Source: Nemertoderma westbladi
Taxonomy: Eukaryota; Animalia; Xenacoelomorpha
Direction: 5' to 3'
DNA: 64,000 nt
NCBI GenBank assembly: GCA_032718475.1
Contig: JAUCBJ010007601.1
Location: 37,773-101,772 of the forward strand
A program made the translations under genes and the position numbers. The notes beneath the pieces are model-generated. The model saw only the letters and a program-made list of their open reading frames with translations, had not been told where the DNA came from and made no database searches. Shown in pieces: positions 6,001-30,655 of the stretch; position 1 is the stretch's first letter; every line of letters begins with the position of its first letter.

Positions 6001-9000
6001 TATCTACTGCATCGTCTAATAGGCCTACAGTACTACAGCATTATCTACTGCATCGTTTAATAGGCCTAAAGTACTACTACATTATCTACTGCATCGTCTA
6101 ATAGCCATACAGTACTACTACATTATCTACTGCATCGTCTAATAGACCTACAGTACTACTACACTCTCTATTGCATCGCCTAATAGGCCTACAGCACTAC
6201 TACATTATCTACTGCATCGTCTAATAGGCCTACAGTACTACAACATTATCTACTGCATCGTTTAATAGGCCTAAAGTACTACAACATTATCTACTGCATC
6301 GTTTAATAGGCCTAAAGTACTACAACATTATCTACTGCATCGTTTAATAGGCCTAAAGTACTACTACATTATCTACTGCATCTTCTAATAGCCCTACAGT
6401 ACTACTACACTCTCTATTGCATCGTTTAATAGGCCTAAAGTACTACTACATTATCTACTGCATCGTCTAATAGGCCTACAGTACTACAACATTATCTACT
6501 GCATCGTCTAATAGGCCTACAGTACTACAGCATTATCTACTGCATCGTTTAATAGGCCTAAAGTACTACTACACTCTCTATTGCATCGTCTAATAGCCCT
6601 ACAGTACTACTACACTCTCTATTGCATCGTTTAATAGGCCTAAAGTACTACAACATTATCTACTGCATCGTTTAATAGGCCTAAAGTACTACTACATTAT
6701 CTACTGCATCGTCTAATAGGCCTACAGTACTACAAAATTATCTACTGCATCGTTTAATAGGCCTAAAGTACTACAACATTATCTACTGCATCGTTTAATA
6801 GGCCTACAGTACTACTACACTCTCTATTGCATCGTCTAATAGCCCTACAGTACTACTACATTATCTACTGCATCGTCTAATAGGCCTACAGTACTACAAC
6901 ATTACCTACTGCATCGTCTAATAGCCCTACAGTACTACTACACTCTCTATTGCATCGTCTAATAGCCCTAAAGTACTACGACATTATCTATTGCATCGTC
7001 TAATAGGCCTACAGTACTACTACATTATCTACTACATCGTCTAATAGCCCTACAGTACTACTACATTATCTACTGCATCGTCTAATAGGCCTACAGTACT
7101 ACAACATTACCTACTGCATCGTCTAATAGGCCTACAGTACTACTACACTCTCTATTGCATCGTCTAATAGCCCTACAGTACTACTACACTCTCTACTGCA
7201 TCGTCTAATAGCCCTACAGTACTACTACATTATCTACTGCATCGTCTAATAGCCCTACAGTACTACTACATTATCTACTGCATCGTCTAATAGCCCTACA
7301 GTACTACTACACTCTCCATTGCATCGTCTAATAGGCCTACAGTGCTACTACACTCTCTATTGCATCGTCTAATAGGCCTACAGTACTACTACACTCTCTA
7401 TTGCATCGTCTAATAGCCCTACAGTACTACTACATTATCTACTGCATCGTCTAATAGCCCTACAGTACTACTACACTCTCTACTGCATCGTCTAATAGGC
7501 CTACAGTACTACTACACTCTCTATTGCATCGTCTAATAGCCCTACAGTACTACTACACTCTCTATTGCATCGTCTAATAGCCCTACAGTACTACTACACT
7601 CTCTATTGCATCGTCTAATAGCCCTACAGTACTACTACATTATCTACTGCATCGTCTAATAGCCCTACAGTACTACTACACTCTCTATTGCTTCGTCTAA
7701 TAGGCCTACAGTACTACTACATTATCTACTGCATCGTCTAATAGGCCTACAGTACTACTACATTATCTACTGCATCGTCTAATAGGCCTACAGTACTACT
7801 ACTACATTATCTACTGCATCGTCTAATAGGCCTACAGTACTACTACATTATCTACTGCATCGTCTAATAGGCCTACAGTACTACTACATTATCTACTGCA
7901 TCGTCTAATAGGCCTACAGTACAACTGCATTATCTACTGCATCGTCTAATAGGCCTACAGTACTACAGCATTATCTACTGCATCGTTTAATAGGCCTAAA
8001 GTACTACTACATTATCTACTGCATCGTCTAATAGCCCTACAGTACTACTACATTATCTACTGCATCGTCTAATAGCCCTACAGTACTACTACATTATCTA
8101 CTGCATCGTCTAATCGGCCTACAGTACTACTACACTATCTATTGCATCGTCTAATAGGCCTACAGTACTACTGCATTATCTACTGCATCGTCTAATAGGC
8201 CTACAGTACTACAGCATTATCTACTGCATCGTTTAATAGGCCTAAAGTACTACTACATTATCTACTGCATCGTCTAATAGCCATACAGTACTACTACATT
8301 ATCTACTGCATCGTCTAATAGACCTACAGTACTACTACACTCTCTATTGCATCGCCTAATAGGCCTACAGCACTACTACATTATCTACTGCATCGTCTAA
8401 TAGGCCTACAGTACTACAACATTATCTACTGCATCGTTTAATAGGCCTAAAGTACTACAACATTATCTACTGCATCGTTTAATAGGCCTAAAGTACTACT
8501 ACATTATCTACTGCATCGTCTAATAGGCCTACAGTACTACAACATTATCTACTGCATCGTCTAATAGGCCTACAGTACTACAGCATTATCTACTGCATCG
8601 TTTAATAGGCCTAAAGTACTACTACACTCTCTATTGCATCGTCTAATAGCCCTACAGTACTACTACACTCTCTATTGCATCGTCTAATAGGCCTAAAGTA
8701 CTACAACATTATCTACTGCATCGTTTAATAGGCCTAACGTACTACTACATTATCTACTGCATCGTCTAATAGGCCTACAGTACTACTACATTATCTACTG
8801 CATCGTCTAATAGGCCTAAAGTACTACAACATTATCTACTGCATCGTTTAATAGGCCTACAGTACTACTACACTCTCTATTGCATCGTCTAATAGCCCTA
8901 CAGTACTACTACATTATCTACTGCATCGTCTAATAGGCCTACAGTACTACAACATTACCTACTGCATCGTCTAATAGGCCTACAGTACTACTACATTATC

Positions 9001-12000
9001 TACTACATCGTCTAATAGCCCTACAGTACTACTACATTATCTACTGCATCGTCTAATAGGCCTACAGTACTACAACATTACCTACTGCATCGTCTAATAG
9101 GCCTACAGTACTACTACATTATCTACTGCATCGTCTTATAGCCCTACAGTACTACTACACTCTCTATTGCATCGTCTAATAGGCCTACAGTACTACAACA
9201 TTACCTACTGCATCGTCTAATAGTCCTACAGTACTACAACATTATCTACTGCATCGTTTAATAGGCCTAAAGTACTACAACATTATCTACTGCATCGTTT
9301 AATAGGCCTAAAGTACTACTACATTATCTACTGCATCGTCTAATAGCCATACAGTACTACTACATTATCTACTGCATCGTCTAATAGGCCTACAGTACTA
9401 CTACACTCTATCCTGCATCGTCTAATAGGCCTACAGTACTACTACATTATCTCTGCATCGTCTAATAGGCCTACAGTACTACTACATTATCTACTGCATC
9501 GTCTAATCGGCCTACAGTACTACTACACTCTCTATTGCATCGTCTAATAGGCCTACAGTACTACTACACTCTCTATTGTATCGTCTAATAGCCCTACAGT
9601 ACTACTACACTCTCTATTGTATCGTCTAATAGGCCTAAAGTACTACTACACTCTCTATTGCATCGTCTAATAGCCCTAAAGTACTACTACACTCTCTATT
9701 GCATCGTCTAATAGGCCTACAGTACTACTACACTCTCTATTGCATCGTCTAATAGGCCTACAGTACTACTACATTATCTACAGCATCGTCTAATCGGCCT
9801 ACAGTACTACTACACTCTCTATTGCATCGTCTAATAGCCCTACAGTACTACTATACTCTCTATTGCATCGTCTAATAGGCCTACAGTACTACTACATTAT
9901 CTACGCATCGTCTAATAGGCCTACAGTACTACTACACTCTCTACTGCATCGTCTAATAGACCTACAGTACTACTACACTCTCTATTGCATCGTCTAATAG
10001 CCCTAAAGTACTACTACACTCTCTATTGCATCGTCTAATAGCCCTACAGTACTACTACATTATCTACTGCATCGTCTAATAGCCCTACAGTACTACTATA
10101 TTATCTACTGCATCGTCTAATAGACCTACAGTACTACTACACTCTCTATTGCATCGTCTAATAGGCCTACAGTACTACTACACTCTCTATTGCATCGTCT
10201 AATAGCCCTACAGTACTACTACACTCTCTATTGCATCGTCTAATAGCCCTACAGTACTACTACATTATCTACTGCATCGTCTAATAGCCCTACAGTACTA
10301 CTATATTATCTACTGCATCGTCTAATAGCCCTACAGTACTACTACACTCTCTATTGCATCGTCTAATAGGCCTACAGTACTACTACACTCTCTATTGCAT
10401 CGTCTAATAGGCCTACAGTACTACTACATTATCTACTGCATCGTCTAATAGCCCTACAGTACTACTACACTCTCTATTGCATCGTCTAATAGCCCTACAG
10501 TACTACTACATTATCTACTGCATCGTCTAATAGCCCTACAGTACTACTAAACTCTCTATTGCATCGTCTAATAGCCCTACAGTACTACTACACTCTCTAT
10601 TGCATCGTCTAATAGCCCTACAGTACTACTACACTCTCTATTGCATCGTCTAATAGGCCTACAGTACTACTACACTCTCTATTGGATCGTCTAATAGGCC
10701 TACAGTACTACTACACTCTCTATTGCATCGTCTAATAGGCCTACAGTACTACTACATTATCTACTGCATCGTCTAATAGGCCTACAGTACTACTACACTC
10801 TCTATTGCATCGTCTAATAGGCCTACAGTACTACTACATTATCTACTGCATCGTCTAATAGCCCTACAGTACTACTACACTCTCTATTGCATCGTCTAAT
10901 AGCCCTACAGTACTACTACATTATCTACTGCATCGTCTAATAGCCCTACAGTACTACTACATTATCTACTGCATCGTCTAATAGGCCTACAGTACTACTA
11001 CATTATCTACTGCATCGTCTAATAGGCCTACAGTACTACTACACTCTCTATTGCATCGTCTAATAGGCCTACAGTACTACTACATTATCTACTGCATCGT
11101 CTAATAGCCCTACAGTACTACTACACTCTCTATTGCATCGTCTAATAGCCCTACAGTACTACTACATTATCTACTGCATCGTCTAATAGCCCTACAGTAC
11201 TACTACATTATCTACTGCATCGTCTAATAGCCCTACAGTACTACTACATTATCTACTGCATCGTCTAATAGGCCTACAGTACTACTACACTCTCTATTGC
11301 ATCGTCTAATAGCCCTACAGTACTACTACACTCTCTATTGCATCGTCTAATAGGCCTACAGTACTACTACACTCTCTATTGCATCGTCTAATAGGCCTAC
11401 AGTACTACGTACTACTACATTATCTACAGCATCGTCTAATCGGCCTACAGTACAACTACACTCTCTATTGCATCGTCTAATAGCCCTACAGTACTACTAC
11501 ACTCTCTATTGCATCGTCTAATAGCCCTACAGTACTACTACACTCTCTATTGCATCGTCTAATAGGCCTACAGTACTACTACATTATCTACAGCATCGTC
11601 TAATCGGCCTACAGTACTACTACACTCTCTATTGCATCGTCTAATAGCCCTACAGTACTACTACACTCTCTATTGCATCGTCTAATAGGCCTACAGTACT
11701 ACGACATTATCTATTGCATCGTCTAATAGGCCTACAGTACTACTACACTCTCTATTGCATCGTCTAATAGGCCTACAGTACTACGACATTATCTATTGCA
11801 TCGTCTAATAGGCCTACAGTACTACTACACTCTCTATTGCATCGTCTAATAGCCCTACAGTACTACTACACTCTCTATTGCATCGTCTAATAGGCCTACA
11901 GTACTACTACACTCTCTATTGCATCGTCTAATAGCCCTACAGTACTACTACACTCTCTATTGCATCGTCTAATAGCCCTACAGTACTACTACATTATCTA

Positions 12001-15000
12001 CTGCATCGTCTAATAGCCCTACAGTACTACTACATTATCTACTGCATCGTCTAATAGGCCTACAGTACTACTACACTCTCTACTGCATCGTCTAATAGGC
12101 CTAAAGTACTACTACACTCTCTACTGTATCGTTTAATAGCCCTACAGTACTACTACACTCTCTACTGCATCGTCTAATAGGCCTACAGTACTACTACATT
12201 ATCTACTGCATCGTCTAATAGCCCTACAGTACTACTACACTCTCTATTGCTTCGTCTAATAGCCCTACAGTACTACTACAGTACATTATCTACTGCATCG
12301 TCTAATAGGCCTACAGTACTACTACATTATCTACTGCATCGTCTAATAGGCCTACAGTACTACTACATTATCTACTTCATCGTCTAATAGGCCTACAGTA
12401 CTACTGCATTATCTACTGCATCGTCTAATAGGCCTACAGTACTACAGCATTATCTACTGCATCGTTTAATAGGCCTAAAGTACTACTACACTCTCTATTG
12501 CATCGCCTAATAGGCCTACAGCACTACTACATTATCTACTGCATCGTCTAATAGGCCTACAGTACTACAACATTATCTACTGCATCGTTTAATAGGCCTA
12601 AAGTACTACAACATTATCTACTGCATCGTTTAATAGGCCTAAAGTACTACTACATTATCTACTGCATCGTCTAATAGGCCTACAGTACTACAACATTATC
12701 TACTGCATCGTTTAATAGGCCTAAAGTACTACAACATTATCTACTGCATCGTTTAATAGGCCTAAAGTACTACTACATTATCTACTGCATCGTCTAATAG
12801 CCCTACAGTACTACTACATTATCTACTGCATCGTCTAATAGGCCTACAGTACTACAACATTACCTACTGCATCGTCTAATAGGCCTACAGTACTACTACA
12901 TTATCTACTACATCGTCTAATAGCCCTACAGTACTACTACATTATCTACTGCATCGTCTAATAGGCCTACAGTACTACAACATTACCTACTGCATCGTCT
13001 AATAGGCCTACAGTACTACTACATTATCTACTGCATCGTCTTATAGCCCTACAGTACTACTACACTCTCTATTGCATCGTCTAATAGGCCTACAGTACTA
13101 CAACATTACCTACTACATCGTCTAATAGTCCTACAGTACTACAACATTATCTACTGCATCGTTTAATAGGCCTAAAGTACTACAACATTATCTACTGCAT
13201 CGTTTAATAGGCCTAAAGTACTACTACATTATCTACTGCATCGTTTAATAGCCCTACGTACTACATTATCTACTGCATCGTCGAATAGGCCTACAGTACT
13301 ACTACACTCTATCCTGCATCGTCTAATAGGCCTACAGTACTACTACATTATCTCTGCATCGTCTAATAGGCCTACAGTACTACTACACTCTCTATTGCAT
13401 CGTCTAATAGGCCTACAGTACTACTACACTCTCTATTGCATCGTCTAATAGGCCTACAGTACTACTACATTATCTACAGCATCGTCTAATCGGCCTACAG
13501 TACTACTACACTCTCTATTGCATCGTCTAATAGCCCTACAGTACTACTATACTCTCTATTGCATCGTCTAATAGGCCTACAGTACTACTACATTATCTAC
13601 CGCATCGTCTAATAGGCCTACAGTACTACTACATTATCTACTGCATCGTCTAATAGCCCTACAGTACTACGACATTATCTACAGCATCGTCTAATCGGCC
13701 TACAGTACTACTACACTCTCTATTGCATCGTCTAATAGCCCTACAGTACTACTACACTCTCTACTGCATCGTCTAATAGGCCTACAGTACTACTATATTA
13801 TCTACCGCATCGTCTAATAGCCCTACAGTACTGCTACATTATCTACTGCATCGTCTAATAGCCCTACAGTACTACTACATTATCTACTGCATCGTCTAAT
13901 AGACCTACAGTACTACTACACTCTCTATTGCATTGTCTAATAGGCCTACAGTACTACTACATTATCTACCGCATCGTCTAATAGGCCTACAGTACTACTA
14001 CATTATCTACTGCATCGTCTAATAGCCATACAGTACTACTACACTCTCTATTGTATCGTCTAATAGGCCTACAGTACTACTACACTCTCTACTGCATCGT
14101 CTAATAGGCCTACAGTACTACTACATTATCTACTGCATCGTTTAATAGGCCTACAGTACTACTACATTATCTACTGCATCGTCTAATAGCCCTACAGTAC
14201 TACTACACTCTCTATTGCATCGTCTAATAGCCCTACAGTACTACTACATTATCTACTGCATCGTCTAATAGCCCTACAGTACTACTATATTATCTACTGC
14301 ATCGTCTAATAGCCCTACAGTACTACTACACTCTCTATTGCATCGTCTAATAGGCCTACAGTACTACTACACTATCTATTGCATCGTCTAATAGGCCTAC
14401 AGTACTACTACACTCTCTATTGCATCGTCTAATAGCCCTAAAGTACTACTACATTATCTACTGCATCGTCTAATAGCCCTACAGTACTACTACACTCTCT
14501 ACTGCATCGTCTAATAGGCCTAAAGTACTACTACATTATCTACTGCATCGTCTAATAGGCCTACAGTACTACTAAATTATCTACTGCATCGTCTAATAGG
14601 CCTACAGTACTACAACATTATCTACTACATCGTCTAATAGCCCTACAGTACTACTACACTCTCTATTGCATCGTCTAATAGCCCTAAAGTACTACTACAC
14701 TCTCTATTGCATCGTCTAATAACCCTACAGTACTACTACACTCTCTATTGTATCGTCTAATAGGCCTACAGTACTACTACACTCTCTATTGCATCGTCTA
14801 ATAGCCCTACAGTACTACTACACTCTCTATTGCATCGTCTAATAGGCCTAAAGTACTACTACACTCTATATTGCATCGTCTAATAGGCCTACAGTACTAC
14901 TACATTATCTACTGCATCGTCTAATAGGCCTACAGTACTACTACATTATCTCTGCATCGTCTAATAGGCCTACAGTACTACTACATTATCTACTGCATCG

Positions 15001-18000
15001 TCTAATAGGCCTACAGTACTACTACACTCTCTACTGCATCGTCTAATAGCCCTACAGTACTACTACATTATCTACTGCATCGTCTAATAGCCCTAAAGTA
15101 CTACTACACTCTCTATTGCATCGTCTAATAGGCCTAAAGTACTACTACATTATCTATTGTATCGTCTAATAGGCCTACAGTACTACTACACTCTCTACTG
15201 CATCGTCTAATAGCCCTACAGTACTACTACATTATCTACTGCATCGTCTAATAGCCCTAAAGTACTACTACACTCTCTATTGCATCGTCTAATAGGCCTA
15301 AAGTACTATTACATTATCTACTGCATCGTCTAATAGGCCTACAGTACTACTAAATTATCTACTGCATCGTCTAATAGGCCTACAGTACTACAACATTATC
15401 TACTACATCGTCTAATAGCCCTACAGTACTACTACACTCTCTATTGCATCGCCTAATAGGCCTAAAGTACTACTACATTATCTACTGCATCGTCTAATAG
15501 CCCTACAGTACTACTACACTCTCTACTGCATCGTCTAATAGGCCTACAGTACTACTACACTCTATATTGCATCGTCTAATAGGCCTACAGTACTACTACA
15601 CTCTCTATTGCATCGTCTAATAGCCCTACAGTACTACTACACTCTCTATTGTATCGTCTAATAGGCCTACAGTATTACTACACTCTCTATTGTATCGTCT
15701 AATAGGCCTAAAGTACTACTACATTATCTACTGCATCGTCTAATAGCCCTACAGTACTACTACACTCTCTATTGCATCGTTTAATAGCCCTAAAGTACTA
15801 CTACACTCTCTACTGCATCGTCTAATAGGCCTACAGTACTACTACACTCTATATTGCATCGTCTAATAGCCCTACAGTACTACTACACTCTCTATTGCAT
15901 CGTCTAATAGCCCTACAGTACTACTACACTCTCTATTGTATCGTCTAATAGGCCTAAAGTACTACTACATTATCTACTGCATCGTCTAATAGCCCTACAG
16001 TACTACTACACTCTCTATTGCATCGTTTAATAGCCCTAAAGTACTACTACACTCTCTACTGCATCGTCTAATAGGCCTACAGTACTACTACACTCTATAT
16101 TGCATCGTCTAATAGCCCTACAGTACTACTACACTCTCTATTGCATCGTCTAATAGCCCTACAGTACTACTACACTCTCTACTGCATCGTCTAATAGCCC
16201 TACAGTACTACTACATTATCTACTGCATCGTCTAATAGCCCTACAGTACTACTACACTCTCTATTGCATCGTCTAATAGGCCTACAGTACTACTACACTC
16301 TCTATTGCATCGTCTAATAGCCCTACAGTACTACTACACTCTCTACTGCATCGTCTAATAGGCCTACAGTACTACTACATTATCTACTGCATCGTCTAAT
16401 AGCCCTAAAGTACTACTACATTATCTACTGCATCGTCTAATAGCCCTACAGTACTACTACACTCTCTATTGCATCGTCTAATAGGCCTAAAGTACTACTA
16501 CACTCTCTATTGCATCGTCTAATAGGCCTACAGTACTACTACACTCTCTACTGCATCGTCTAATAGGCCTACAGTACTACTACACTCTCTATTGCATCGT
16601 CTAATAGCCATACAGTACTACTACACTCTCTATTGCATCGTCTAATAGCCCTACAGTACTACTACACTCTCTATTGCATCGTCTAATAGGCCTACAGTAC
16701 TACTACACTCTCTATTGCATCGTCTAATAGCCCTACAGTACTACTACACTCTCTACTGCATCGTCTAATAGGCCTACAGTACTACTACATTATCTACTGC
16801 ATCGTCTAATAGCCCTAAAGTACTACTACATTATCTACTGCATCGTCTAATAGCCCTACAGTACTACTACACTCTCTACTGCATCGTCTAATAGGCCTAA
16901 AGTACTACTACACTCTCTATTGCATCGTCTAATAGGCCTACAGTACTACTACACTCTCTACTGCATCGTCTAATAGGCCTACAGTACTACTACACTCTCT
17001 ATTGCATCGTCTAATAGCCATACAGTACTACTACACTCTCTATTGCATCGTCTAATAGCCCTAAAGTACTACTACACTCTCTATTGCATCGTCTAATAGG
17101 CCTACAGTACTACTACATTAGCTACTGCATCGTCTAATAGCCCTACAGTATTACTACATTCTCTACTGCATCGTCTAATAGCCCTACAGTACTACTACAC
17201 TCTCTATTGCATCGTCTAATAGCCCTACAGTACTACTACATTATCTACTGCATCGTCTAATAGCCCTACAGTACTACTACATTATCTACTGCATCGTCTA
17301 ATAGGCCTACAGTACTACTACACTCTCTATTGCATCGTCTAATAGCCCTAAAGTACTACTACACTCTCTATTGCATCGTCTAATAGCCCTACAGTACTAC
17401 TACATTATCTACTGCATCGTCTAATAGCCCTACAGTACTACTAAATTATCTACTGCATCGTCTAATAGGCCTACAGTACTACTACATTATCTACTGCATC
17501 GTCTAATAGGCCTACAGTACTACTACACTCTCTATTGCATCGTCTAATAGCCCTACAGTACTACTACACTCTCTATTGCATCGTCTAATAGCCCTACAGT
17601 ACTACTACATTATCTACTGCATCGTCTAATAGCCCTACAGTACTACGACATTATCTACTGCATCGTCTAATAGCCCTACAGTACTACTATATTATCTACT
17701 GCATCGTCTAATAGCCCTACAGTACTACTACACTCTCTATTGCATCGTCTAATAGCCCTACAGTACTACTACACTCTCTATTGCATCGTCTAATAGCCCT
17801 ACAGTACTACTACATTATCTACTGCATCGTCTAATAGGCCTACAGTACTACTACATTATCTACTGCATCGTCTAATAGCCCTACAGTACTACTACATTAT
17901 CTACTGCATCGTCTAATAGCCCTACAGTACTACTACATTATCTACTGCATCGTCTAATAGCCCTACAGTACTACTACACTCTCTATTGCATCGTCTAATA

Positions 18001-19153
18001 GGCCTACAGTACTACTACATTATCTACTGCATCGTCTAATCGGCCTACAGTACTACTACACTCTCTATTGCATCGTCTAATAGCCCTACAGTACTACTAC
18101 ATTATCTACTGCATCGTCTAATAGCCCTACAGTACTACTACACTCTCTATTGCATCGTCTAATAGCCCTACAGTACTACTATATTATCTACTGCATCGTC
18201 TAATAGCCCTACAGTACTACTACACTCTCTATTGCATCGTCTAATAGCCCTACAGTACTACTACACTCTCTATTGCATCGTCTAATAGCCCTACAGTACT
18301 ACTACATTATCTACTGCATCGTCTAATAGCCCTACAGCACTACGACATTATCTACTGCATCGTCTAATAGCCCTACAGTACTACTATATTATCTACTGCA
18401 TCGTCTAATAGCCCTACAGTACTACTACACTCTCTATTGCATCGTCTAATAGGCCTACAGTACTACTACACTCTCTATTGCATCGTCTAATAGCCCTACA
18501 GTACTACTACATTATCTACTGCATCGTCTAATAGCCCTACAGTACTACTACATTATCTACTGCATCGTCTAATAGCCCTACAGTACTACTACACTCTCTA
18601 CTGCATCGTCTAATAGGCCTACAGTACTACTACACTCTCTATTGCATCGTCTAATAGCCCTACAGTACTACTACACTCTCTATTGCATCGTCTAATAGCC
18701 CTACAGTACTACTACATTATCTACTGCATCGTCTAATAGGCCTACAGTACTACTACATTATCTACTGCATCGTCTAATAGCCCTACAGTACTACTACACT
18801 CTCTACTGCATCGTCTAATAGGCCTACAGTACTACTACACTCTCTACTGCATCGTCTAATAGGCCTACAGTACTACTACACTCTCTATTGCATCGTCTAA
18901 TAGCCCTACAGTACTACTACACTCTCTATTGCATCGTCTAATAGCCCTACAGTACTACTACATTATCTACTGCATCGTCTAATAGCCCTACAGTACTACT
19001 ACATTATCTACTGCATCGTCTAATAGGCCTACAGTACTACTACATTATCTACTGCATCGTCTAATAGGCCTACAGTACTACTACACTCTCTATTGCATCG
19101 TCTAATAGGCCTACAGTACTACTACACTCTCTATTGCATCGTCTAATAGCCCT
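1..19153. repeat. 41-bp tandem satellite array, about 465 copies, running off the left edge of the window
   Basis: Unit ACTACACTCTCTATTGCATCGTCTAATAGCCCTACAGTACT recurs head-to-tail with period 41. Common variants are CTCTCTATT/TTATCTACT, GCCC/GGCC and TCTAAT/TTTAAT. It ends mid-unit (GCCCT) at the LTR. The ORF track has no entries here. Confidence 0.99.
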
Positions 19154-19605
19154 TGTGCACGTATCCGTGAATCTTCAATATAATTTCTATAGTAGAGTAT
19201 AAGGAGCAATCGGTTACTAAAAATAATATCTTGCTTACTACACACAACCCTTGTTAGTTAGGTGATAAATAAATTTGGCCCTTCAGCTGTTTGTAGTTAG
19301 TTAGCCTGCGGTATCATCCTACGATTGGTTGATGGGCTATTGTCTGTGCTCTATATATAATATTGGCATTATTCATTTAAGGTGACTTCTCTATCTGGGT
19401 ACAAATGTCTACTGGTGTATTAGGTTGTATTATATAGTAGTTATATTGGGCAGTAGGAAATATTATTTAACAAGTTGAAAGAACATTATACAGTTTCTCT
19501 GACAATATTATAGATTTCAACTTCGTAATAAGAACTTATTTCCCCTAATAAATCAGCGTCTTCCGCCTAAAAATATTCCTAAACAGACGGGGACAATCGT
19601 CTACA
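19154..19605 (+). repeat. 5' LTR (452 bp)
   Basis: TGTGCACG...CGTCTACA, no differences seen by eye from 30204-30655. TATA-like boxes at about 19352-19360 and 19431-19437, AATAAA at 19547-19552. Confidence 0.97.
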
Positions 19606-19617
19606 GTTAAATAATAT
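19606..19617 (+). promoter_or_regulatory. Non-tRNA primer-binding site, putative self-priming PBS
   Basis: GTTAAATAATAT abuts the LTR-terminal CA, lacks the TGG of tRNA PBSs, and is the exact reverse complement of LTR positions 19460-19471 (ATATTATTTAAC). Confidence 0.75.
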
Positions 19618-20415
19618 CATCTTCGAAGATAAAGACATTTCTCGGATAGAGAATTCAAGAGACGGAAATCTTAAAAGATAAGTATTATTCTTTAGGAACC
19701 GTGGTGCGGTACTTGAGGAATTAATTATTTGTTTATTTCCATTTCCAACTCTCCAACCAACGTTCAGCGCTACTCCTTTTCTCCCAGCTGTTGGTCTCTA
19801 TCAACAAGAACCGGTCGTGAGGATTCGGCGACTTGATGGGGCAAGTACTCTTTTTTTTGGGCCAGACTTGAACTCAAGAAAAGATAATATCGCCAAGCGG
19901 CACACGGGCGCGAAGGATTACGTCTGCGACTAACCTAGTTGAGGCCAATACAAGGCAGTGCAACCAGGACTTTCAGGACCGGAATTTATTCCGTAACGTA
20001 TAATTTATTACTTTATTTCTTATGTTCAGTAATTTTACTGTAGGTATTCTATACTGTAAGTAAGAAGATACAGTAGATAGACCTACACTTTGTTCTTTGA
20101 CTATAATTACTAGTGGAGGCACCACTGAAGCTAGAAGATAGTTGTAGTATATTTTTCTAATATCTCGGGTATTTTTTCTCTTCGTTTTTAACCCGTACTA
20201 ATATTTTTCTTTTCGTAATTTGTCACCTAACCGGTGATATGCTAAAGCTGAGCCAAGACTGACTCAGTTAGTACGATTAATATGGTCGTCAGATTATAAT
20301 TTTTGTTTTATTGTAATATAATTACTGTATCCTTATTTATATTCTTTATCAGGTAAATTGAGAGTGAACTTTCGAAAATAAAAAATAAAAATTTGATAAC
20401 ATCCGTACCTTTATC

Positions 20416-23400
20416 ATGTCTACCGATGCATCTACGGAACAGGAGACCCCTCAAAGCGAGTTCGTTCCCAGTGGTAATGGATTAGACTCGGACGAGACTT
20501 CGTCGGCGTTTCAACGGCCTACGATCTCGGTAAATGAAACAGAGCCCATTGGGCAGCTGCCAGTAGACTCATATCCTGTCCACAACATCCTCTCACTTGG
20601 TGAGAACGCGAACTCTCACTGTGCTATTGGCAGTGAGCAAAGTGCCGTACACGAAACTCGTGACACATTAATCGGAACTCTTAGTTCTAGAACAAAGTCT
20701 AGAACAACAAAAGAAATCCCTGCTGTGGATATAGCCACCATCAACCGCCAACTTGGTCAATTCTATCACCATTTAGACGTTGGAATAGTTGAGTTGGAAG
20801 CCCAAGCAAGATTTCCCAAAACAGGTAAGTCTTTAGACAACATTGATAGGAATCTTGCACGTTTAGAATCTAGGTGGCAATCAATTACCAAGTTATATAA
20901 ACAGCAAATTGATTTCTTAGAAACTCAAGGAACCTTCGGTGAGTACCAACGGGCCAAAAATAAGTTTGTAACGGATGAATGTAAGTATCGGGAATTTAGG
21001 GATAGTTTAATTCAGGTGTATGACAAGGTATCTGCCAGTAATGTGTGTGTGCCTAGTGCGACTGTGTGTGTTCCTAGAGTGATCCGAAGTCCGGTAAACT
21101 CTTCCCAGTCTCGCATGTCAAATATGCAGTGGGATAACTATCCATTGTCCTCAATATTGAGGTCAGACCTTGAACAAACAATGACCCATCAAACCAGTTT
21201 AGAAAATGTAGGGCATTCTGAATTACTTAATTTTCCTTTGCAAAACCACCGGCTTGAGGGAGGTACATTAGAATCAGTTGCTAGTAGTATTGGTAAAGTA
21301 ACTACTGATATGTCATTACACTCTCAGAGATCTGATAATAAGTCTTCTAAGTCATCTAAACTGAGAAGAATAGCAGATGCTAATATGGCTGTATTAGCTA
21401 AGAGACAAGCGGAAGAAACTTTGCGCTTGTCTCATCAAATAGAGAGAGAAAAAATCCATGTTCAAAATGAACTTATGTCAGAACAAGCAAAAGCACGCAT
21501 AGAGGAAGCCAAGCGTCAGGTTGCAGACACAGCAATAGAAGCCAACCGCATGATTTCGAAGACTACCCAGCAGGCTGAAGATGCAAGACGGGAAGCTATT
21601 CTTCTCACAGAGAATGCAGAGAAACAGTTGAAACGCGTGGAACAGGCTGAACAAGCTAGAGTGGTAGAAAGTCGAAGGAGAAGTGATATTTATGATCGCA
21701 TACGTCAGCTTGAAGATGCAATGGATATGCAGACTGTGCACCACCAGCTACAGGTGGAAGAATGTCGTCAGCAAGCAGAAATATTGAATTGTACGGACGT
21801 AGTTTCGGACGAATTGGCAGGTCTAGGTGTTGTACCTTCAATTAAACCAGTCCGATCTATACCCCTAATTAGTAATGACTATTCAACATTTCCCCCTCCC
21901 CTTAGATCCACACCTAATAACCATCCATTACCAGCAGAAAAGACAGCCAGCAAACCTGTTGTTTTTCAGGATTGTTCTATCCCCTCTGAAACTAAAACCA
22001 TCCACCCTAAAGGACCCATAGACAGGATGAAACTGATATTTAGTGACGAGTGTAAGGTAATTAGGACTGACACAGAAGAATCACCTGATGAATCAGCTGA
22101 TTCAATTGCGTTGGAACCACAAAGGACTAGAATCTTCCGGCGTCAAGTTGTACAGCCACAATCTTCAAGTAATAACAATAATATGACTTCCATCCCCGAG
22201 AATCCGGTTACTCAACAGCAGCTAGAGGATGCAGTAACTTCCGTTAAAGAGGCTATTAACCTTTTAACACAACAAATAGTAACCCCAACTGTGCCAAAAC
22301 ACAATGCGCCAGGTGCAGCAAGTAGACGGATTAAGGTTGAATCCTCATTTACAGAGAACAATGAAGTTAGGGGTAATACGCACCATAGGGGTAGTATGTT
22401 CTTGCATGAGCAGCCAAGCTATTACATTCCAGATATTCGAAAAAAAGGTTCATTTCATATTCCCGGGACACCCCAGATACACTTACCATGTGCAGCGAGT
22501 GCATATCAAACAGTGAGAAATCCATATCCTCTGCCAAAAAAGGCAGAAACAACTGATAATAGACAAGTTAATGTTACTTCAGAACCTTTTTGTTTACCGC
22601 GAGGACCGCGGGACTGTGATTTTTATGTTAAACCACGAGAAACACATCAATGGTCTAAATGTTACACTGAGCAGACCCCAAGAAAATCAGGGGACTCAAT
22701 GTCAGTAAGTAGGCCACCCTTAAGACAGTCTGATACTACTAGTAATCCCACGGGTGTCAATCGACCTGCAAGTCGAAGCAATACGGGCAGGTATCCGGAC
22801 AGGGAACCGGGCAGATATCCGGACAGGGAACCGAGCAGGTATCCAGACAGTAACCCAGGTAGATATTCAGACAGAGACCCGGACAGGGAACCGGGCAGGT
22901 ATCCAGACAGGGAACCGGGCAGGTATCCAGACAGGAACCCAGGTAGATATTCAGACAGAGACCCGGACAGGGAACCGGGCAGGTATCCAGACTGGAACCC
23001 AGGTAGATATTCAGACAGAGACCCGGACAGGGAACCGGGCAGGTATCCAGACTGGAACCCAGGTAGATATTCAGACAGAGACCCGGACAGGGAACCGGGC
23101 AGGTATCCAGACAGGTATCCAGACTGGAACCCGGACAGGGACCCAGATAAAGACCCAGAGGGGGACCCGGACAAATACTCAGACAAAGATTCAGACAGAC
23201 CACCAGACCGTGAAATCTTTGGTAAAAAGTATAACAGTGGCCGTTCTAGAGATTGCCTGGGTGAAAGCAATTGTAATCACCCAACCTCACATCAACAACA
23301 TGCCCTTTTTGAAAAATTGGCATTATCCCTCGAGGCGCCTAAGTTAGACCCAACTCCTTTCACAGGGGACCCAAAAATGTTTCTGGTTTTTAAAAATAGA

Positions 23401-26145
23401 TTCAGGACACAAGTGGATAATAAAGAAGTTACAGATGACGTCAAACTAAGATATCTAATAACATATTTCCGAGGTGAGCCTTTAGAAATGATTGAGCATT
23501 ATGAAGGAATGGAAAATGGTTATGAACAAGCTTGGAATACACTCGAACGGCTTTATGGCCAACCTACCAGAGTAATGAAGGCAGTTATTTATGATGTTAC
23601 TAGATGTCGGTACCCAGTGTCTTCTCCAAAAGAACTTTTAAAATACTCTCATGACGTTAGGAGAACGATGGACGTATTACAAACATTAAATTGTTATGAA
23701 TATGTAAATAATCCGGATTTCATCCAACAAGTAGCTTCAAACTTAGCAAACAATCTCAGATGGCGATGGGCCAGACAGACACATAACTTTAGGAAAGTCA
23801 ATGGTAGAGATCCAGGTATGTCCGAATTGGTAGTATTCTTAGACGAGGAGACAAGTATTGCGACATGTCCATTGTATGGACCACAAGCTGCAGAGGAAGT
23901 ATTACGCTGTAAGATGGGTGAAAAATTTAAAGGTTTTGGCAATAATTCAACGCCTGCACCTATCACTCAACGGACCCAAAAACAACCTGTCGAGCCCAAA
24001 GTGACCAGCACCATGGATAATTTTTATGCAGACGAGAACACTGTTAATTTTTCTATGAAAGAAGATGTAGTGCTACCTGTGTCTGAGCAAAGTAACTTTT
24101 CCAGCTATCTACCTGCCAATGATGAAAGTGTTGAAATACATACTATTGACACAGAGATAAAACCCTGTTTATGTTGTAGTAAGTTTCATCTTCTGACGAG
24201 ATGTTCCCAGTTTTTCTCTTTGGGTGAACAGGAATGTTGGAATTTTGTTATAGATCATAAGTTATGTAGCTTATGTTTGAAATCTGGCCATTGGCGTAAA
24301 AAGTGCCGTTCTCTCTACCGTTGCACGGTGAATGGCTGTGGGAGGAAACACGCTAAATGTTTGCATCCTGAATTAGGTAAAACAGATGAGGAGACAGAAG
24401 GTCTTATTAAGAATTTCTACGCATTGCAACGTGATAGTAAAACTCCGATGAAATTTAGTGAGTTTACCAATCGTAAGCAAGTAGGATATGAAGCTTATAA
24501 AAGTGTGGCGTCCATGACAGTGAACCATTACGCAAATTTGACGCCCAGCCCCAGTCAAACAAGTATTAAAGCAGTATTTTTACGAGTTGTTCCGATGGCA
24601 GTGAGCAATCCCATCACCGGTTGTAGACTCACTACGTTTGGGTTATTAGATGAAGGATCTACTGGTTCTTTTATGGATAAATCACTGGGCGAGTTACTGA
24701 CATTAGAAAGTTATCCAGTATCAGTTAAACTAAACACCCTACTTTCACAGGAAGGAAAAGAACTTCAACAGACGTCTTGTCTAATTAGTTCTATAATGCC
24801 AGATAGTAATATTACATTACATGCCAGTGAACTACTATTAATTCAGAATTTGCATTTGAACTATACTAGACCGTCCCAATGGTCGTTAGATCGTCTACCT
24901 TATTTGAAGAATTTAAATTTGGAATATCCAACGGTGGACGTCAATCGGATTTCTATGCTAATTGGCTTGAATAATCCACGTGCCCATCGCGTCTATAAGA
25001 CTGTATGGGGACCAACCCCTTACGACGAAGAAAATAATCCACACGCGATTAAGACTCCCTTTGGATGGACAATAGTGGGTCCAATCACTGACTGTAGAAT
25101 AAAACCCTCACTGCCTACATCGAGTATAAAACCAGTTGTGGAAACAAACCCCGATATAGATCTAGAAATACATACCTGCGTGCCAATGGTAAGTGAGAAG
25201 TATGACTTTGTAGAGCAGATGGAGAATGTGGAGCAGCCATGCACATGGCGTTTACAGAATGATGGCGAACATGATGTTTTCCATAACGAAGTCGCAACAA
25301 TAGACATAAATCATGTACAATGTTGTCCATGGAGAGTTGATACGAGTACAGGGGACGAAGCAACCCATGATTTGTTAAAGAAATTTTTTGATTCGGAAGC
25401 ATTTGTTTGTCCTACCCGCATTGTCAATAAATCTATACAAGATCATAAATGCGAGAAAATTTTGAAAGAAAGCACTCGTTTCATCAATGGACACTACCAC
25501 GTAGAAATGTTATGGCTTGATAAAGACAAACCACTGATTAATAATAAATATTTAGCCCTGACCCGCTTAAGATGGATAAAGCGTAAATTGATTAAAATGC
25601 CTGACGAACATAATAAATACCAAGCAATACTAGACGATTATGAAAAAAAGGGTTATGTCAGACGCCTTTCCTTGGTGGAAAAGTTGTTACCGGATGGTCC
25701 TAGGAAATATTACCTCCCAACTCACCCCGTATGGGATCCAAATAAACCAGGTAAGTTACGCATTGTACTTAATGCTGCAGCGCAATATAAAGGGATGAGT
25801 TTAAATTCAGAGCTCATGGAAGGACCCAATATATACACATCTATTGTTGATGTCCTCCTTAAGTTTCGTCAACATCGTGTGGTGTTTGGATCAGACGTGG
25901 AAGGTATGTTTCACCAAGTACGGACATTCGATAGAGATTCGCAATCCCAGAATATTCTTTGGTGGGAGGGGGACACTGAGCCAAGTGAGTTACAGGACTT
26001 AATTGTGTATCAAATGCTAGTGCATGGGTTCGGGAAAAAGGATTCTCCATGCGTTGCAACGCACGCATTGCGTCAGTCGGCGTACGACCATCGTGAAGAG
26101 TACCATCGTTCTGTTAAGAAGCGATTACAAGAGCATTTTACGTAG
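20416..26145 (+). CDS. gag-pol: BEL/Pao polyprotein, N-terminal part: coiled-coil and capsid-like Gag, zinc knuckles, aspartic protease, first half of RT
   Basis: 1909-aa ORF. FTGDPKMFLVFKNRF capsid-like region, CLCCSKFHLLTRC / CSLCLKSGHWRKKC / CTVNGCGRKHAKCLH knuckles, protease LLDEGS, RT motifs KLRIVLNAAA, SDVEGMFHQV and FGKKDSP. Stops at the YVDD frameshift. Confidence 0.95.
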   Translation: MSTDASTEQETPQSEFVPSGNGLDSDETSSAFQRPTISVNETEPIGQLPVDSYPVHNILSLGENANSHCAIGSEQSAVHETRDTLIGTLSSRTKSRTTKEIPAVDIATINRQLGQFYHHLDVGIVELEAQARFPKTGKSLDNIDRNLARLESRWQSITKLYKQQIDFLETQGTFGEYQRAKNKFVTDECKYREFRDSLIQVYDKVSASNVCVPSATVCVPRVIRSPVNSSQSRMSNMQWDNYPLSSILRSDLEQTMTHQTSLENVGHSELLNFPLQNHRLEGGTLESVASSIGKVTTDMSLHSQRSDNKSSKSSKLRRIADANMAVLAKRQAEETLRLSHQIEREKIHVQNELMSEQAKARIEEAKRQVADTAIEANRMISKTTQQAEDARREAILLTENAEKQLKRVEQAEQARVVESRRRSDIYDRIRQLEDAMDMQTVHHQLQVEECRQQAEILNCTDVVSDELAGLGVVPSIKPVRSIPLISNDYSTFPPPLRSTPNNHPLPAEKTASKPVVFQDCSIPSETKTIHPKGPIDRMKLIFSDECKVIRTDTEESPDESADSIALEPQRTRIFRRQVVQPQSSSNNNNMTSIPENPVTQQQLEDAVTSVKEAINLLTQQIVTPTVPKHNAPGAASRRIKVESSFTENNEVRGNTHHRGSMFLHEQPSYYIPDIRKKGSFHIPGTPQIHLPCAASAYQTVRNPYPLPKKAETTDNRQVNVTSEPFCLPRGPRDCDFYVKPRETHQWSKCYTEQTPRKSGDSMSVSRPPLRQSDTTSNPTGVNRPASRSNTGRYPDREPGRYPDREPSRYPDSNPGRYSDRDPDREPGRYPDREPGRYPDRNPGRYSDRDPDREPGRYPDWNPGRYSDRDPDREPGRYPDWNPGRYSDRDPDREPGRYPDRYPDWNPDRDPDKDPEGDPDKYSDKDSDRPPDREIFGKKYNSGRSRDCLGESNCNHPTSHQQHALFEKLALSLEAPKLDPTPFTGDPKMFLVFKNRFRTQVDNKEVTDDVKLRYLITYFRGEPLEMIEHYEGMENGYEQAWNTLERLYGQPTRVMKAVIYDVTRCRYPVSSPKELLKYSHDVRRTMDVLQTLNCYEYVNNPDFIQQVASNLANNLRWRWARQTHNFRKVNGRDPGMSELVVFLDEETSIATCPLYGPQAAEEVLRCKMGEKFKGFGNNSTPAPITQRTQKQPVEPKVTSTMDNFYADENTVNFSMKEDVVLPVSEQSNFSSYLPANDESVEIHTIDTEIKPCLCCSKFHLLTRCSQFFSLGEQECWNFVIDHKLCSLCLKSGHWRKKCRSLYRCTVNGCGRKHAKCLHPELGKTDEETEGLIKNFYALQRDSKTPMKFSEFTNRKQVGYEAYKSVASMTVNHYANLTPSPSQTSIKAVFLRVVPMAVSNPITGCRLTTFGLLDEGSTGSFMDKSLGELLTLESYPVSVKLNTLLSQEGKELQQTSCLISSIMPDSNITLHASELLLIQNLHLNYTRPSQWSLDRLPYLKNLNLEYPTVDVNRISMLIGLNNPRAHRVYKTVWGPTPYDEENNPHAIKTPFGWTIVGPITDCRIKPSLPTSSIKPVVETNPDIDLEIHTCVPMVSEKYDFVEQMENVEQPCTWRLQNDGEHDVFHNEVATIDINHVQCCPWRVDTSTGDEATHDLLKKFFDSEAFVCPTRIVNKSIQDHKCEKILKESTRFINGHYHVEMLWLDKDKPLINNKYLALTRLRWIKRKLIKMPDEHNKYQAILDDYEKKGYVRRLSLVEKLLPDGPRKYYLPTHPVWDPNKPGKLRIVLNAAAQYKGMSLNSELMEGPNIYTSIVDVLLKFRQHRVVFGSDVEGMFHQVRTFDRDSQSQNILWWEGDTEPSELQDLIVYQMLVHGFGKKDSPCVATHALRQSAYDHREEYHRSVKKRLQEHFT
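22785..23210 (+). repeat. In-frame coding minisatellite in gag (24/60-nt units, GRYPDREP / GRYSDRDPDREP)
   Basis: Repeated GGCAGGTATCCAGACAGGGAACCG-type units that keep the reading frame. Confidence 0.9.
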
Positions 26146-28832
26146 ACGACTGTTATACTGGAGCAGAAACTGTAGATGAGGCAGTTAGATTAGCCCATGG
26201 TATCACCAATTGTTTAAAAATGGGGGGGTTTAATTTAACTAAATTTGTATCCAATTCGAGGGAATTTTTAAAGTTAATCCCTGAAGAGAAGCGAGCCCAG
26301 AGAGATCTCGATTTGAACTTTGATGAACTGCCAGTGACCAGAGCTCTGGGGACTCTTTGGTCCCCCGAAAGTGATATTTTTACGTTCACAACGTCCACTA
26401 AGGAACACCCAGCATCTAAACGTGGTTGTTTGAGTGCGGTAGCATCCATCTATGACCCAATTGGTCTAGTGGCACCGGTAGTCTTACAAGGCAAACAATT
26501 CCTACAAAAATTGTGGGCAAATAAAGTAACCTGGGATGGTATATTATCATCTGACATGTCTTTAGAATGGGCTCAGTGGTATGAGCAATTAACACTCCTC
26601 TCTAAACTCTCAATACCGCGACATTATTTCCTCAATGAGATTTCCCATCCTGATGATATTTTACAGTTACATCACTTTTGTGATGCTAGCTTAAGTGGTT
26701 ACGGATGTGTCTCTTATCTGCGTCGGGTGTCTACCATAGGTCTCATTTCATGTACATTGGTATTTGCAAAAACCCGTACAGCACCAGCACCTTCGAAGGG
26801 AATTTCTATCCCTAAACTAGAATTACAAGCAGCGGTATTGCTTTCCCGTAGCCATGTTCAGATTATGTCCAGCATCACCCTGCATATCCAACCTAACAAC
26901 ATAATCTGTTGGTCGGATTCTACGGTTGTTTTGTGTCAAATAGCTAATGAGGCACGTAGATTTGAAACATACGTAGCAAATCGCACTGTTGAGATTGGTC
27001 GACATTTAAACCCAGAACAGTGGCGGTATATTCCCGGAACTCGAAATCCCGCCGACATTGCCAGCCGAGGTTCTACACCTTCAGAATTTGTCACTAAATA
27101 CCAAGATTGTTGGTTTAATGGACCCAAAGTTTTGAGGCGACCTGAGATTGAATGGGATGAATCTCTTAGACTTTCCAACCCTATGAAAGATCAAGTAATT
27201 CCCCAAGACGCTGGATTAAAATCAGAAAAATATACTAAACCAATTAAATCGAAGGTGATTGCTGCGGTAATAACTGGAAATCACTTTAGAGGGATACATA
27301 ATTTACTTCATCGGTTTAATTCTTTCGAAATGTTAGTAAAAGTGGTAGCTCGCTTTCTTGTAAAGTTTCACTACAATAGGTGCCGGTTGAGCGTTCAAAC
27401 TGACCAATTAATTGATGTGATAAATCCAGAAACACTTTATAAGACATGTAACCAACAAGCTCAAGTAAGAGTACTCGCCTTAGTACAGAAAGATGTCTAT
27501 GGAGATATAATTAGATCGATGTTAAACAAACAAACTACCCGCTTACCCAGATCTCTAGCTATTCTTAACCCATTCATCGGCAAGGATGGTTTGCTCCGAG
27601 TTGGTTCTAGAATACCACTAATAGACTCCTCAGAATATGACTTTATATTTCCCATCATATTACCTGCCTCGCATCACGTATCTATGGTAATTGTAAGAGA
27701 TATTCATATAAATACTGGACATTTAGGAATCGACTATACAGTTCAAAAGGTACGTAAAACTTACTGTATAAATTCGTTACGCCGATTAGTTAAGGCGATT
27801 CAACGTAAGTGTATATTCTGCCGCAAGAAATACGCCCAGCCACTTACACAGATGATGGCACCCCTTCCGGCAGTACGAACAATTGGTTATGTTCCTCCCT
27901 TTTCCAGAACTGGAGTAGATTTATTCGGACCTATGTATGTTGTTCGGGGGCGTGGGTCAGAGAAACGCTACGGTGTACTATTAACATGTATGATATCACG
28001 TGCCATAGTATTAGATCTATCTATGAATTATAGTGCAGATGCATTGTTGTGCGTCCTCAGACGCTTTATTTGTAACCATGCTGGCGTCGAACGTATTTAT
28101 TCTGACCAAGGCAGCCACTTTGGAGGCAGTAAAACAGAACTTGACAATTTACTTATCCAAGCCAAAGAACTTGGCATACCTGATGAAGTAATTGGAAAAA
28201 TCGAATGGGAGTTTCAAACACCAACCGCAAGCCATCACGGGGGCGTCTGGGAACGTCTAATTAGGACCACAAAAGATACACTAAACGCCTTATTAACTAA
28301 ACGACATTCTCAACATAAACTTGTTACTGAAGAGGTGCTACGTACTACGTTGTCTGAGGTACAATATTTAATTAATGACCGCCCATTGTGTGCATTGAAT
28401 GACGATGTAACTTCTACTGAGGTTCTTACTCCCAATCATTTGCTGTTGCGTCGAACAACAGCACTCCCGCAGTCTATTAAATTGATACATGAGATGTATG
28501 ACGGTAATGAGAATGAAGTGCAGTACAGATCTATGTGGCGCAAATCGCAGCATATTGCAAGTCAATTCTGGAGAATATGGCGGAATACTTATATCCAACT
28601 CTTAATCTCACGACAAAAATGGTTCAAACCAAGTCGAAATTTAGCAGTTGGAGATTTAGTTTTGGTTACTGATCCGGATACTAAACGGTTTAAATGGAAA
28701 CTCGGAAGAATTGAGAGTGTATTACCTAGTTCTGATGGATTCGTGCGATCAGTACATGTAAGAACAGGTACTTCAGTTCTATGTCGCCCCGTTCAGCGTT
28801 TATGTCTGTTAGAGATGGCTGTCGATGGTTAA
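26139..28832 (+). CDS. pol: BEL/Pao polyprotein, C-terminal part: RT catalytic YVDD, RNase H, integrase (-1 frame relative to ORF1)
   Basis: TAC GTA GAC GAC (YVDD) at 26139 is in frame with the 870-aa ORF starting at 26220. RNase H FCDAS, integrase H..H/C..C zinc finger, DDE motifs GVDLFGP, YSDQGSHF and GVWER. Confidence 0.95.
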   Translation, partial: YVDDCYTGAETVDEAVRLAHGITNCLKMGGFNLTKFVSNSREFLKLIPEEKRAQRDLDLNFDELPVTRALGTLWSPESDIFTFTTSTKEHPASKRGCLSAVASIYDPIGLVAPVVLQGKQFLQKLWANKVTWDGILSSDMSLEWAQWYEQLTLLSKLSIPRHYFLNEISHPDDILQLHHFCDASLSGYGCVSYLRRVSTIGLISCTLVFAKTRTAPAPSKGISIPKLELQAAVLLSRSHVQIMSSITLHIQPNNIICWSDSTVVLCQIANEARRFETYVANRTVEIGRHLNPEQWRYIPGTRNPADIASRGSTPSEFVTKYQDCWFNGPKVLRRPEIEWDESLRLSNPMKDQVIPQDAGLKSEKYTKPIKSKVIAAVITGNHFRGIHNLLHRFNSFEMLVKVVARFLVKFHYNRCRLSVQTDQLIDVINPETLYKTCNQQAQVRVLALVQKDVYGDIIRSMLNKQTTRLPRSLAILNPFIGKDGLLRVGSRIPLIDSSEYDFIFPIILPASHHVSMVIVRDIHINTGHLGIDYTVQKVRKTYCINSLRRLVKAIQRKCIFCRKKYAQPLTQMMAPLPAVRTIGYVPPFSRTGVDLFGPMYVVRGRGSEKRYGVLLTCMISRAIVLDLSMNYSADALLCVLRRFICNHAGVERIYSDQGSHFGGSKTELDNLLIQAKELGIPDEVIGKIEWEFQTPTASHHGGVWERLIRTTKDTLNALLTKRHSQHKLVTEEVLRTTLSEVQYLINDRPLCALNDDVTSTEVLTPNHLLLRRTTALPQSIKLIHEMYDGNENEVQYRSMWRKSQHIASQFWRIWRNTYIQLLISRQKWFKPSRNLAVGDLVLVTDPDTKRFKWKLGRIESVLPSSDGFVRSVHVRTGTSVLCRPVQRLCLLEMAVDG

Positions 28833-30130: not shown

Positions 30131-30187
30131 GCCTTCACTATTTTTGGTGTAATTTTCAATTATTTTTGTAATTTTTGCTAGGGCAAT

Positions 30188-30203
30188 GAAAAAATTAGGG
30201 GAC
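30188..30203 (+). promoter_or_regulatory. Polypurine tract
   Basis: GAAAAAATTAGGGGAC immediately before the 3' LTR. Confidence 0.65.
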
Positions 30204-30655
30204 TGTGCACGTATCCGTGAATCTTCAATATAATTTCTATAGTAGAGTATAAGGAGCAATCGGTTACTAAAAATAATATCTTGCTTACTACACACAACCC
30301 TTGTTAGTTAGGTGATAAATAAATTTGGCCCTTCAGCTGTTTGTAGTTAGTTAGCCTGCGGTATCATCCTACGATTGGTTGATGGGCTATTGTCTGTGCT
30401 CTATATATAATATTGGCATTATTCATTTAAGGTGACTTCTCTATCTGGGTACAAATGTCTACTGGTGTATTAGGTTGTATTATATAGTAGTTATATTGGG
30501 CAGTAGGAAATATTATTTAACAAGTTGAAAGAACATTATACAGTTTCTCTGACAATATTATAGATTTCAACTTCGTAATAAGAACTTATTTCCCCTAATA
30601 AATCAGCGTCTTCCGCCTAAAAATATTCCTAAACAGACGGGGACAATCGTCTACA
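30204..30655 (+). repeat. 3' LTR (452 bp)
   Basis: Direct repeat of 19154-19605. Confidence 0.97.

Follow-up and report, generated by a model that had tools for sequence, protein, structure and literature searches.

Which molecule primes reverse transcription in an LTR retrotransposon whose 5' LTR is not followed by a tRNA-type primer-binding site (PBS)? This question is raised by an element located in the window, i.e., the whole stretch of 64,000 nucleotides from Nemertoderma westbladi that was analysed. The initial annotation had proposed that this element primes itself in the manner of Tf1, with a segment of its own RNA.

The retrotransposon and its candidate primer-binding site

Self-comparison of the window revealed two LTRs (19154-19605 and 30204-30655) of 452 bp each, which are 100% identical and read TGT...ACA. 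Outside the satellite, this pair is the sole long exact repeat in the window, and it bounds a young element of 11,502 bp (11.5 kb). To judge from its protein sequences, this is a BEL/Pao element. It exhibits Pfam matches to DUF1759, Peptidase_A17, Integrase_H2C2 and DUF5641, the order of Pfam domains and motifs is Gag followed by PR-RT-RH-IN, and a TG...CA LTR pair and a polypurine tract are present. All 120 listed homologues carry PF05380; they are 27-41% identical, and the best ones, at 28-41%, share the domain set. ORF1 is unusually long, and its Gag part includes an expanded repeat of a 12-bp unit (22784-23115) encoding PGRYPDRE-type peptides. Between ORF2 and the 3' LTR, a stretch of 1.37 kb contains plus-strand ORFs of 105 codons at most.

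Despite the identical LTRs, the reading frame changes inside the RT, just upstream of YVDD (26118-26145), through either a mutation or an error of the assembly, and this frame-broken RT of the window copy counts against the self-priming reading. The flanks are also unusual. The satellite is found only on the left, the right flank beyond the element being non-satellite, and no target-site duplication was observed (GCCCT on the left versus ATATG on the right). As the satellite is on one side only and the duplication is absent, this mismatch suggests that two copies recombined or that the assembly was joined here. Neither event affects the relation between LTR and PBS. Elsewhere in the window, a fragmented non-LTR element lies on the minus strand at 44288-48319, where different ORFs encode its endonuclease and RT domains, and pieces of it recur at 31470-32286 and 34198-34474. 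A GC-rich minisatellite with a 12-bp unit, open in several frames and with no Pfam match, is located at 55639-57934.

Table 1 Positions in the window of the features of the BEL/Pao element and its left flank.
Feature	Position	Strand	Remarks
Satellite array	1..19153	.	41-bp unit, about 467 units, 93% matches, ends exactly at 5' LTR
5' LTR	19154..19605	+	452 bp, 34% GC, TGT...ACA
Best TATA box, TATATATA	19352..19360	+	perfect TATAWAWR; predicted start near 19384
Outer stem, 5' arm	19384..19410	+	begins at predicted upstream start; pairs with leader 19633-19656
TATA-like TATATAG	19431..19437	+	weaker, two mismatches; would give a start near 19460-62
Candidate self-primer	19460..19471	+	contiguous, intron-less, ends in AC; predicted cut after 19471
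Helix at cut	19472-80/19515-23 (19472..19523)	+	9 bp, flush with predicted cut
AATAAA	19547..19552	+	R end predicted downstream of cut
U5 hairpin	19585..19602	+	small, chance level (p=0.51)
Candidate PBS	19606..19617	+	self-complementary, offset 0 from LTR end
Outer stem, 3' arm	19633..19656	+	in the leader, just past PBS
Leader			810 nt between 5' LTR and first Met of ORF1 (20416)
ORF1	20416..26145	+	Gag (DUF1759, Cys-His fingers, long PGRYPDR-type repeat), protease (LDEGS), first part of RT
ORF2	26118..28832	+	different frame; remaining RT (YVDD 26139), RNase H region, integrase H2C2, DUF5641
RNase H region in ORF2			Pfam Peptidase_A17; motifs FCDAS, KLELQAA
Polypurine tract	30187..30203	+	directly before 3' LTR
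3' LTR	30204..30655	+	identical to 5' LTR; contains the 12-mer again (30510-21)

The initial annotation had reported that no TGG follows the 5' LTR and that the next 12 nt perfectly complement a segment of the LTR. Both observations were confirmed. The closest TGGTGC lies 97 nt downstream, at 19702, which is too distant to define the LTR end, and it was rejected as a PBS. No tRNA was found within the window by ARAGORN, and Rfam gave no match across 19100-20500. The segments 19606-17 and 19460-71 are exactly reverse-complementary, with 12 Watson-Crick pairs. The duplex cannot be extended either way and ends at the first base past the LTR (offset 0). A chance match had initially been estimated at well below 1%. 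When the LTR was shuffled 20,000 times with its dinucleotides preserved, the 12-mer turned up in 7 shuffles (in 16 of 20,000 with offsets 0-3). As a background, a 12-nt complement occurs within the 452 nt ahead of 118 positions out of 43,800 in the window (0.27%), and runs of adjacent positions make up many of these matches. The 12-mer comprises 11 A/T, and its duplex (-8.4 kcal/mol) is among the weakest of the set (mean -13.1).

Pairing and predicted primer introns among the relatives

Relatives were searched with an alignment of ORF2 and 33 of the 120 listed homologues. This gave 95 loci, 78 from metagenomes (from the best 80 of 577 confirmed) and 17 from prokaryote assemblies. The latter (L079-L095) are probably contamination from animal hosts; some lie on megabase contigs (L089, L093). 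Viral contigs yielded 152 pattern matches and no relatives. A self-complementary site was observed in 35 of the 95 loci and a tRNA-type site in 13 (8 scored computationally and 5 read by eye), while one locus with a readable LTR, L082, exhibits neither signature. The remaining 46 were unscored, being duplicates or having no readable LTR end with a PBS. Self-complementarity with differing letters in these 35 loci amounts to covariation. Three cases are weaker: L035 pairs over 9 nt only, L068 over 7 nt in the scored copy, and L083 needs a 900-nt window.

As the LTR ends of 28 of the 35 self-complementary relatives were located via the signature itself, the weight rests on three unbiased tests. 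The first is limited to elements whose LTR end is fixed by two LTR copies: all seven non-tRNA relatives pair over 10-15 nt, whereas the six tRNA-type relatives all reach just 4-6 nt. In the second, 2,871 ACA sites lying upstream of gag were scanned blindly, which gave 16 spliced matches of at least 10 nt (in 15 loci) versus 0 in a control with the sequence reversed but not complemented, and 10 contiguous matches of at least 11 nt versus 2. In the third, PBSs and LTRs were swapped among 32 elements, leaving out the near-duplicates L059 and L069, the broken-donor L068 and the truncated L029. Pairing of at least 10 nt was found with the own LTR in 30 of the 32 elements and in 16 of 992 foreign combinations, 10 of which are between close kin.

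The PBS letters differ between elements, with a mean of 4.3 of 10 identical and 28 distinct primer ends among the 32 elements, so no single tRNA explains them. The primer ends in AC in 25 elements, in AT in 5 and in CT in 2 (AC in 24 of the 31 relatives), and the duplex begins 0-4 nt from the LTR end across all 32. The letters thus vary while the position of the duplex and its end persist, which points to compensatory change where a primer must end. The self-pairing is a real, group-wide feature. Some variation is also observed around the LTR end: the PBS occurs in three tandem, decaying copies in the leader of L015, the tRNA-type TGGTGC occurs three times in tandem after the LTR of L061 (470-600), and the LTRs of L040 and L075 end in TA instead of CA.

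In 27 of the 35 self-complementary relatives, the complement exists only after removal of a GT-AG intron of 33-478 nt, which argues that the pairing operates at the RNA level; this aspect is absent from the initial annotation. Particularly short LTR introns, of 38 nt in L040 (1-480) and 33 nt in L046 (6900-7340), are predicted to split the primer. With loose splice rules, chance matches are common, and the AT-rich PBS of the window element gave one chance 11-nt spliced match among 31 foreign LTRs. The window element itself is of the intron-less type, its primer being contiguous. Splicing within its LTR to build or extend the primer was rejected, the best spliced match (8 nt) being shorter than the contiguous one (12 nt). 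A good donor-like AAG/GTGACT (19379-19387) and a possible acceptor at 19513 (19493-19513) are present in this LTR; an intron joining the two would remove the primer. In L010, one LTR bears an acceptor and another is intron-less, and the two part exactly in the middle of the primer, with the caveat that the contig does not include the donor and that the two LTRs may be from sister copies. On the unrooted tree, contiguous types require 4 changes, as would fit introns having been lost repeatedly by way of reverse transcription.

The pol tree comprised 44 labelled sequences and was unrooted; L059, L069, L012, L050 and all unlabelled loci were left out, and the trees were built without named BEL/Pao reference sequences. 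The priming type requires a single change on this tree, compared with a mean of 9.2 in shuffles, none of 500 being as low. The branch dividing self-complementary from tRNA-type elements has an SH-aLRT support of 56. The window element is placed on a long branch as sister to the spliced L001 (support 99). In a FastTree analysis of 85 rows, it is found near L040 and L046, still among the self-complementary elements. Joining it to the tRNA-primed group is not rejected by the AU test (p-AU 0.076).

Proposed mechanism and alternative readings

Based on these sequence comparisons, we consider it likely that the pairing primes reverse transcription from the element's own RNA instead of a host tRNA. 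This assessment covers the observed pairing, the annealing and the RNase H cut, and two variants regarding the start and the copy used are nested within it. The first step is observed: the tRNA site is absent, an exact complement is present at offset 0, and relatives have the same layout with different letters. Folding of the RNA would anneal 19460-71 to 19606-17. If Tf1 is taken as a model, the RNase H encoded by the element would then cut after the conserved ...AC (C19471), and the freed 3'-OH would extend into U5. The RNase H motifs of ORF2 appear compatible with such a primer-releasing cut. The strong-stop DNA would cover 19472-19605 and jump to the 3' R region, and the primer sequence would be restored by the 3' LTR. 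With AATAAA at 19547, R would end downstream of the cut, which is required for strand transfer. Transcription would somewhat preferably start near 19384, the primer being the 3' end of a capped fragment of roughly 88 nt, and the window element would be an intron-less member of a group that usually assembles its primer by LTR-intron splicing.

We lean, by a little, towards a broader scenario. A large BEL/Pao branch would have swapped tRNA priming for an internal self-primer, which the host spliceosome would assemble from an LTR intron, so that only spliced RNA could be copied. The window element would derive from such a form, the spliced junction having become fixed in both of its LTRs by reverse transcription, and it may use two starts (19384 and about 19460) that separate messenger from replicating RNA.

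The position of the start is where a strict copy of Tf1, itself a variant of self-priming, has to be weighed. In that scheme, TATATAG would direct an RNA start at about 19460, and the primer would consist of the first 10-12 nt of this RNA, as the initial annotation had proposed for the first 12 nt. TATATAG and AATAAA are indeed present, the former 29 nt above the 12-mer, and the complementarity stops sharply at 19460. However, TATATATA at 19352, which lies 108 nt upstream of the primer, is a perfect box, whereas the one at 19431 has two mismatches. Among the 12 relatives with a near-consensus TATA, just one has it 24-36 nt above the primer, and the other 11 do not; L075 has a TATA 28-32 nt above its primer. 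The 18 of 30 relatives that have no near-consensus TATA leave their starts unconstrained. Moreover, a start at the primer would require first exons of 3-10 nt in the spliced relatives.

The folding evidence is divided. An outer stem of 21 bp, with 2 G-U pairs and a 3-nt bulge, pairs 19387-19410 with 19633-19653 (1 of 1,000 shuffles). It begins at 19384-87, which argues against a start at the primer, and L066 has a similar arrangement in two segments of 14 and 12-15 nt. The segment 19384-19700 folds with z=-3.2, and the predicted probability of this stem is 1.0. Across the group, it reaches p<=0.05 in 4 of 31 self-complementary elements, including that of the window, and in 0 of 7 tRNA-type elements; it was therefore rejected as a group-wide feature and retained as local evidence. 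Possibly, this stem is left over from the copying of a long primer fragment into plus strand, or it acts as a structural switch. In contrast, the primer:PBS helix has a probability of only 0.00-0.05 at 37 C for RNA starts at 19375-19420, lying 5.5 kcal/mol above the minimum for a start at 19384, and of 0.92-1.0 for starts at 19450-19462, although only for two of four 3' ends. From the TATA boxes, a primer made up of the first 12 nt of the RNA thus seems improbable, whereas this part of the folding fits the start initially noted. On balance, we modestly favour an internal primer with transcription starting near 19384, and regard the strict Tf1 scheme as less likely than not. The conflict between the TATA and stem evidence and the folding could disappear if the nucleocapsid acts as a chaperone or if two start sites are used; with two coexisting starts, the long RNA may serve translation and the short RNA replication.

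Two further structures had been put forward in the initial annotation. The 9-bp helix at the cut is real, being rare in the window LTR (p=0.003, 300 shuffles) and predicted to be paired at 0.98-1.0. Nevertheless, relatives exhibit only 2-6 bp at this place, and the mean excess over shuffles in 33 elements, including that of the window, is 0.33 +/- 0.22, so this helix was rejected as a conserved signal. The U5 hairpin exists as described, but at chance level, and its conservation was not found in 32 relatives. The fold proposed for 19460-19640 was reproduced (z=-1.9, 10 of 200 shuffles being equally stable).

Internal self-priming must also be compared with readings in which the pairing has another role or another partner. 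The pairing could be a regulatory RNA structure acting in translation, packaging or masking of the 5' polyA signal, with a host tRNA fragment or small RNA as the primer. Half-tRNA priming is known in Ty1/copia groups (PMC6317226, in part), and the window duplex is weak and AT-rich. We find this reading unlikely, because the duplex always ends where a primer has to, at 0-4 nt from the end of the LTR, and has a fixed 3' dinucleotide, because 28 distinct primer ends would demand equally many host RNAs, and because the pairing is missing from tRNA-type relatives. Less likely still is a primer from another copy of the 12-mer, either the one in R of the 3' LTR (30510-21) of the same RNA molecule or one on the second RNA of a packaged dimer. 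Both LTRs have the 12-mer upstream of AATAAA, and on the long RNA the 5' copy is predicted to be occupied by other pairing; against this, sequence alone does not separate the 5' from the 3' copy, no precedent was found in the portions of papers covered, and Tf1 uses the 5' copy (PMC7175516, in part). Finally, a chance match in an AT-rich LTR, which the A/T content of the 12-mer and the inverted repeats behind the window background might favour, is very improbable given the shuffles at offset 0 and the recurrence of the signature and its AC end in relatives.

If self-priming holds, several consequences follow. Should a large share of BEL/Pao elements prime themselves, self-priming would be found in all three LTR superfamilies. 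Annotation filters based on the PBS would miss such elements. Silencing can act through the pairing of tRNA fragments at the PBS, and these elements would escape it. If the primer is built across an intron, replication would depend directly on splicing. If it is internal, hardly more than an RNA duplex of 11-12 bp ending in AC would have to specify the cut. The predicted positions make the mechanism directly testable.

Comparison with known systems

In the literature covered, i.e., the ICTV text and portions of the papers named below, no report of self-priming in BEL/Pao was found. A missing or self-complementary PBS may be remarked on in Repbase entries or in the papers on Saci-1 or Suzu. By term look-up, the portions covered of the Sinbad paper, of de la Chaux and Wagner 2011, of the mollusc survey and of the Troyka paper contained no discussion of the primer, and those of the annelid paper a generic mention only. 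BEL/Pao self-priming was likewise absent from the portions covered of PMC2582038, PMC6934838, PMC3601003, PMC4600332 and PMC11042837.

According to the ICTV, the Belpaoviridae (Semotivirus) have an 18-nt PBS for tRNA-Arg or tRNA-Gly and a genome of 4.2-10 kb (PMC8742986). The window element shares with them the LTRs, the gag-PR-RT-RH-IN order, the polypurine tract and the BEL/Pao-specific Pfam families. It differs from them in its self-complementary PBS and in its size of 11.5 kb, whereas a tRNA-type site like theirs is found in 13 of the 95 related loci. As no TGG follows its LTR, it was filed as a variant that is BEL/Pao by protein only. Compared with this family description of host-tRNA priming, the likely self-priming in BEL/Pao would be a departure.

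Self-priming has been listed for Tf1/sushi, Tcn1 and the copia TAR lineage (Neumann 2019, PMC6317226, in part). In the TAR lineage of Ty1/copia (Houba, Osr-1), it was predicted with a rule of at least 10 nt, 0-5 nt after the LTR (PMC6317226, in part). The same sequence rule describes the window element; the superfamily and the plant hosts differ, and the portion covered of that paper does not mention an intron-spanning primer.

The closest likeness is with Tf1/Tf2/Tj1, Tf1/sushi (Ty3/gypsy chromoviruses) and Tcn1, which likewise have no tRNA site and a PBS complementary to their own LTR over 11-12 nt. Tf1 primes with its first 11 bases, RNase H cutting between bases 11 and 12 (PMC7175516, in part), and a predicted cut at the primer 3' end is common to Tf1 and the window element. 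Tf2 uses alternative starts (PMC5341516, in part). The Tf1 primer is its first 11 nt, whereas that of the window element is probably internal. The Tf1 primer also sits within a three-duplex pretzel (PMC10085805, in part), in which sequence next to the PBS forms two further duplexes with the LTR downstream of the primer; in the window, by contrast, the stem before the PBS has 5 bp (p=0.51) and that in the leader 4 bp (p=0.98), and on average over 33 elements, pretzel-type flanking helices did not exceed those of shuffled sequences. Of the Tf1-style self-priming proposed initially, the tRNA-independent part is thus strongly supported by covariation in 35 relatives, whereas the Tf1-specific parts are not, given the distant TATA box, the unconserved helix and hairpin and the absence of a Tf1-type leader duplex. 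Priming of the window element is probably not a plain copy of Tf1. Moreover, Tf1/sushi elements are chromoviruses with a chromodomain, whereas the window element has BEL/Pao proteins and no chromodomain match in Pfam, and in most of its BEL/Pao relatives, in contrast to Tf1/sushi, the primer would span an intron.
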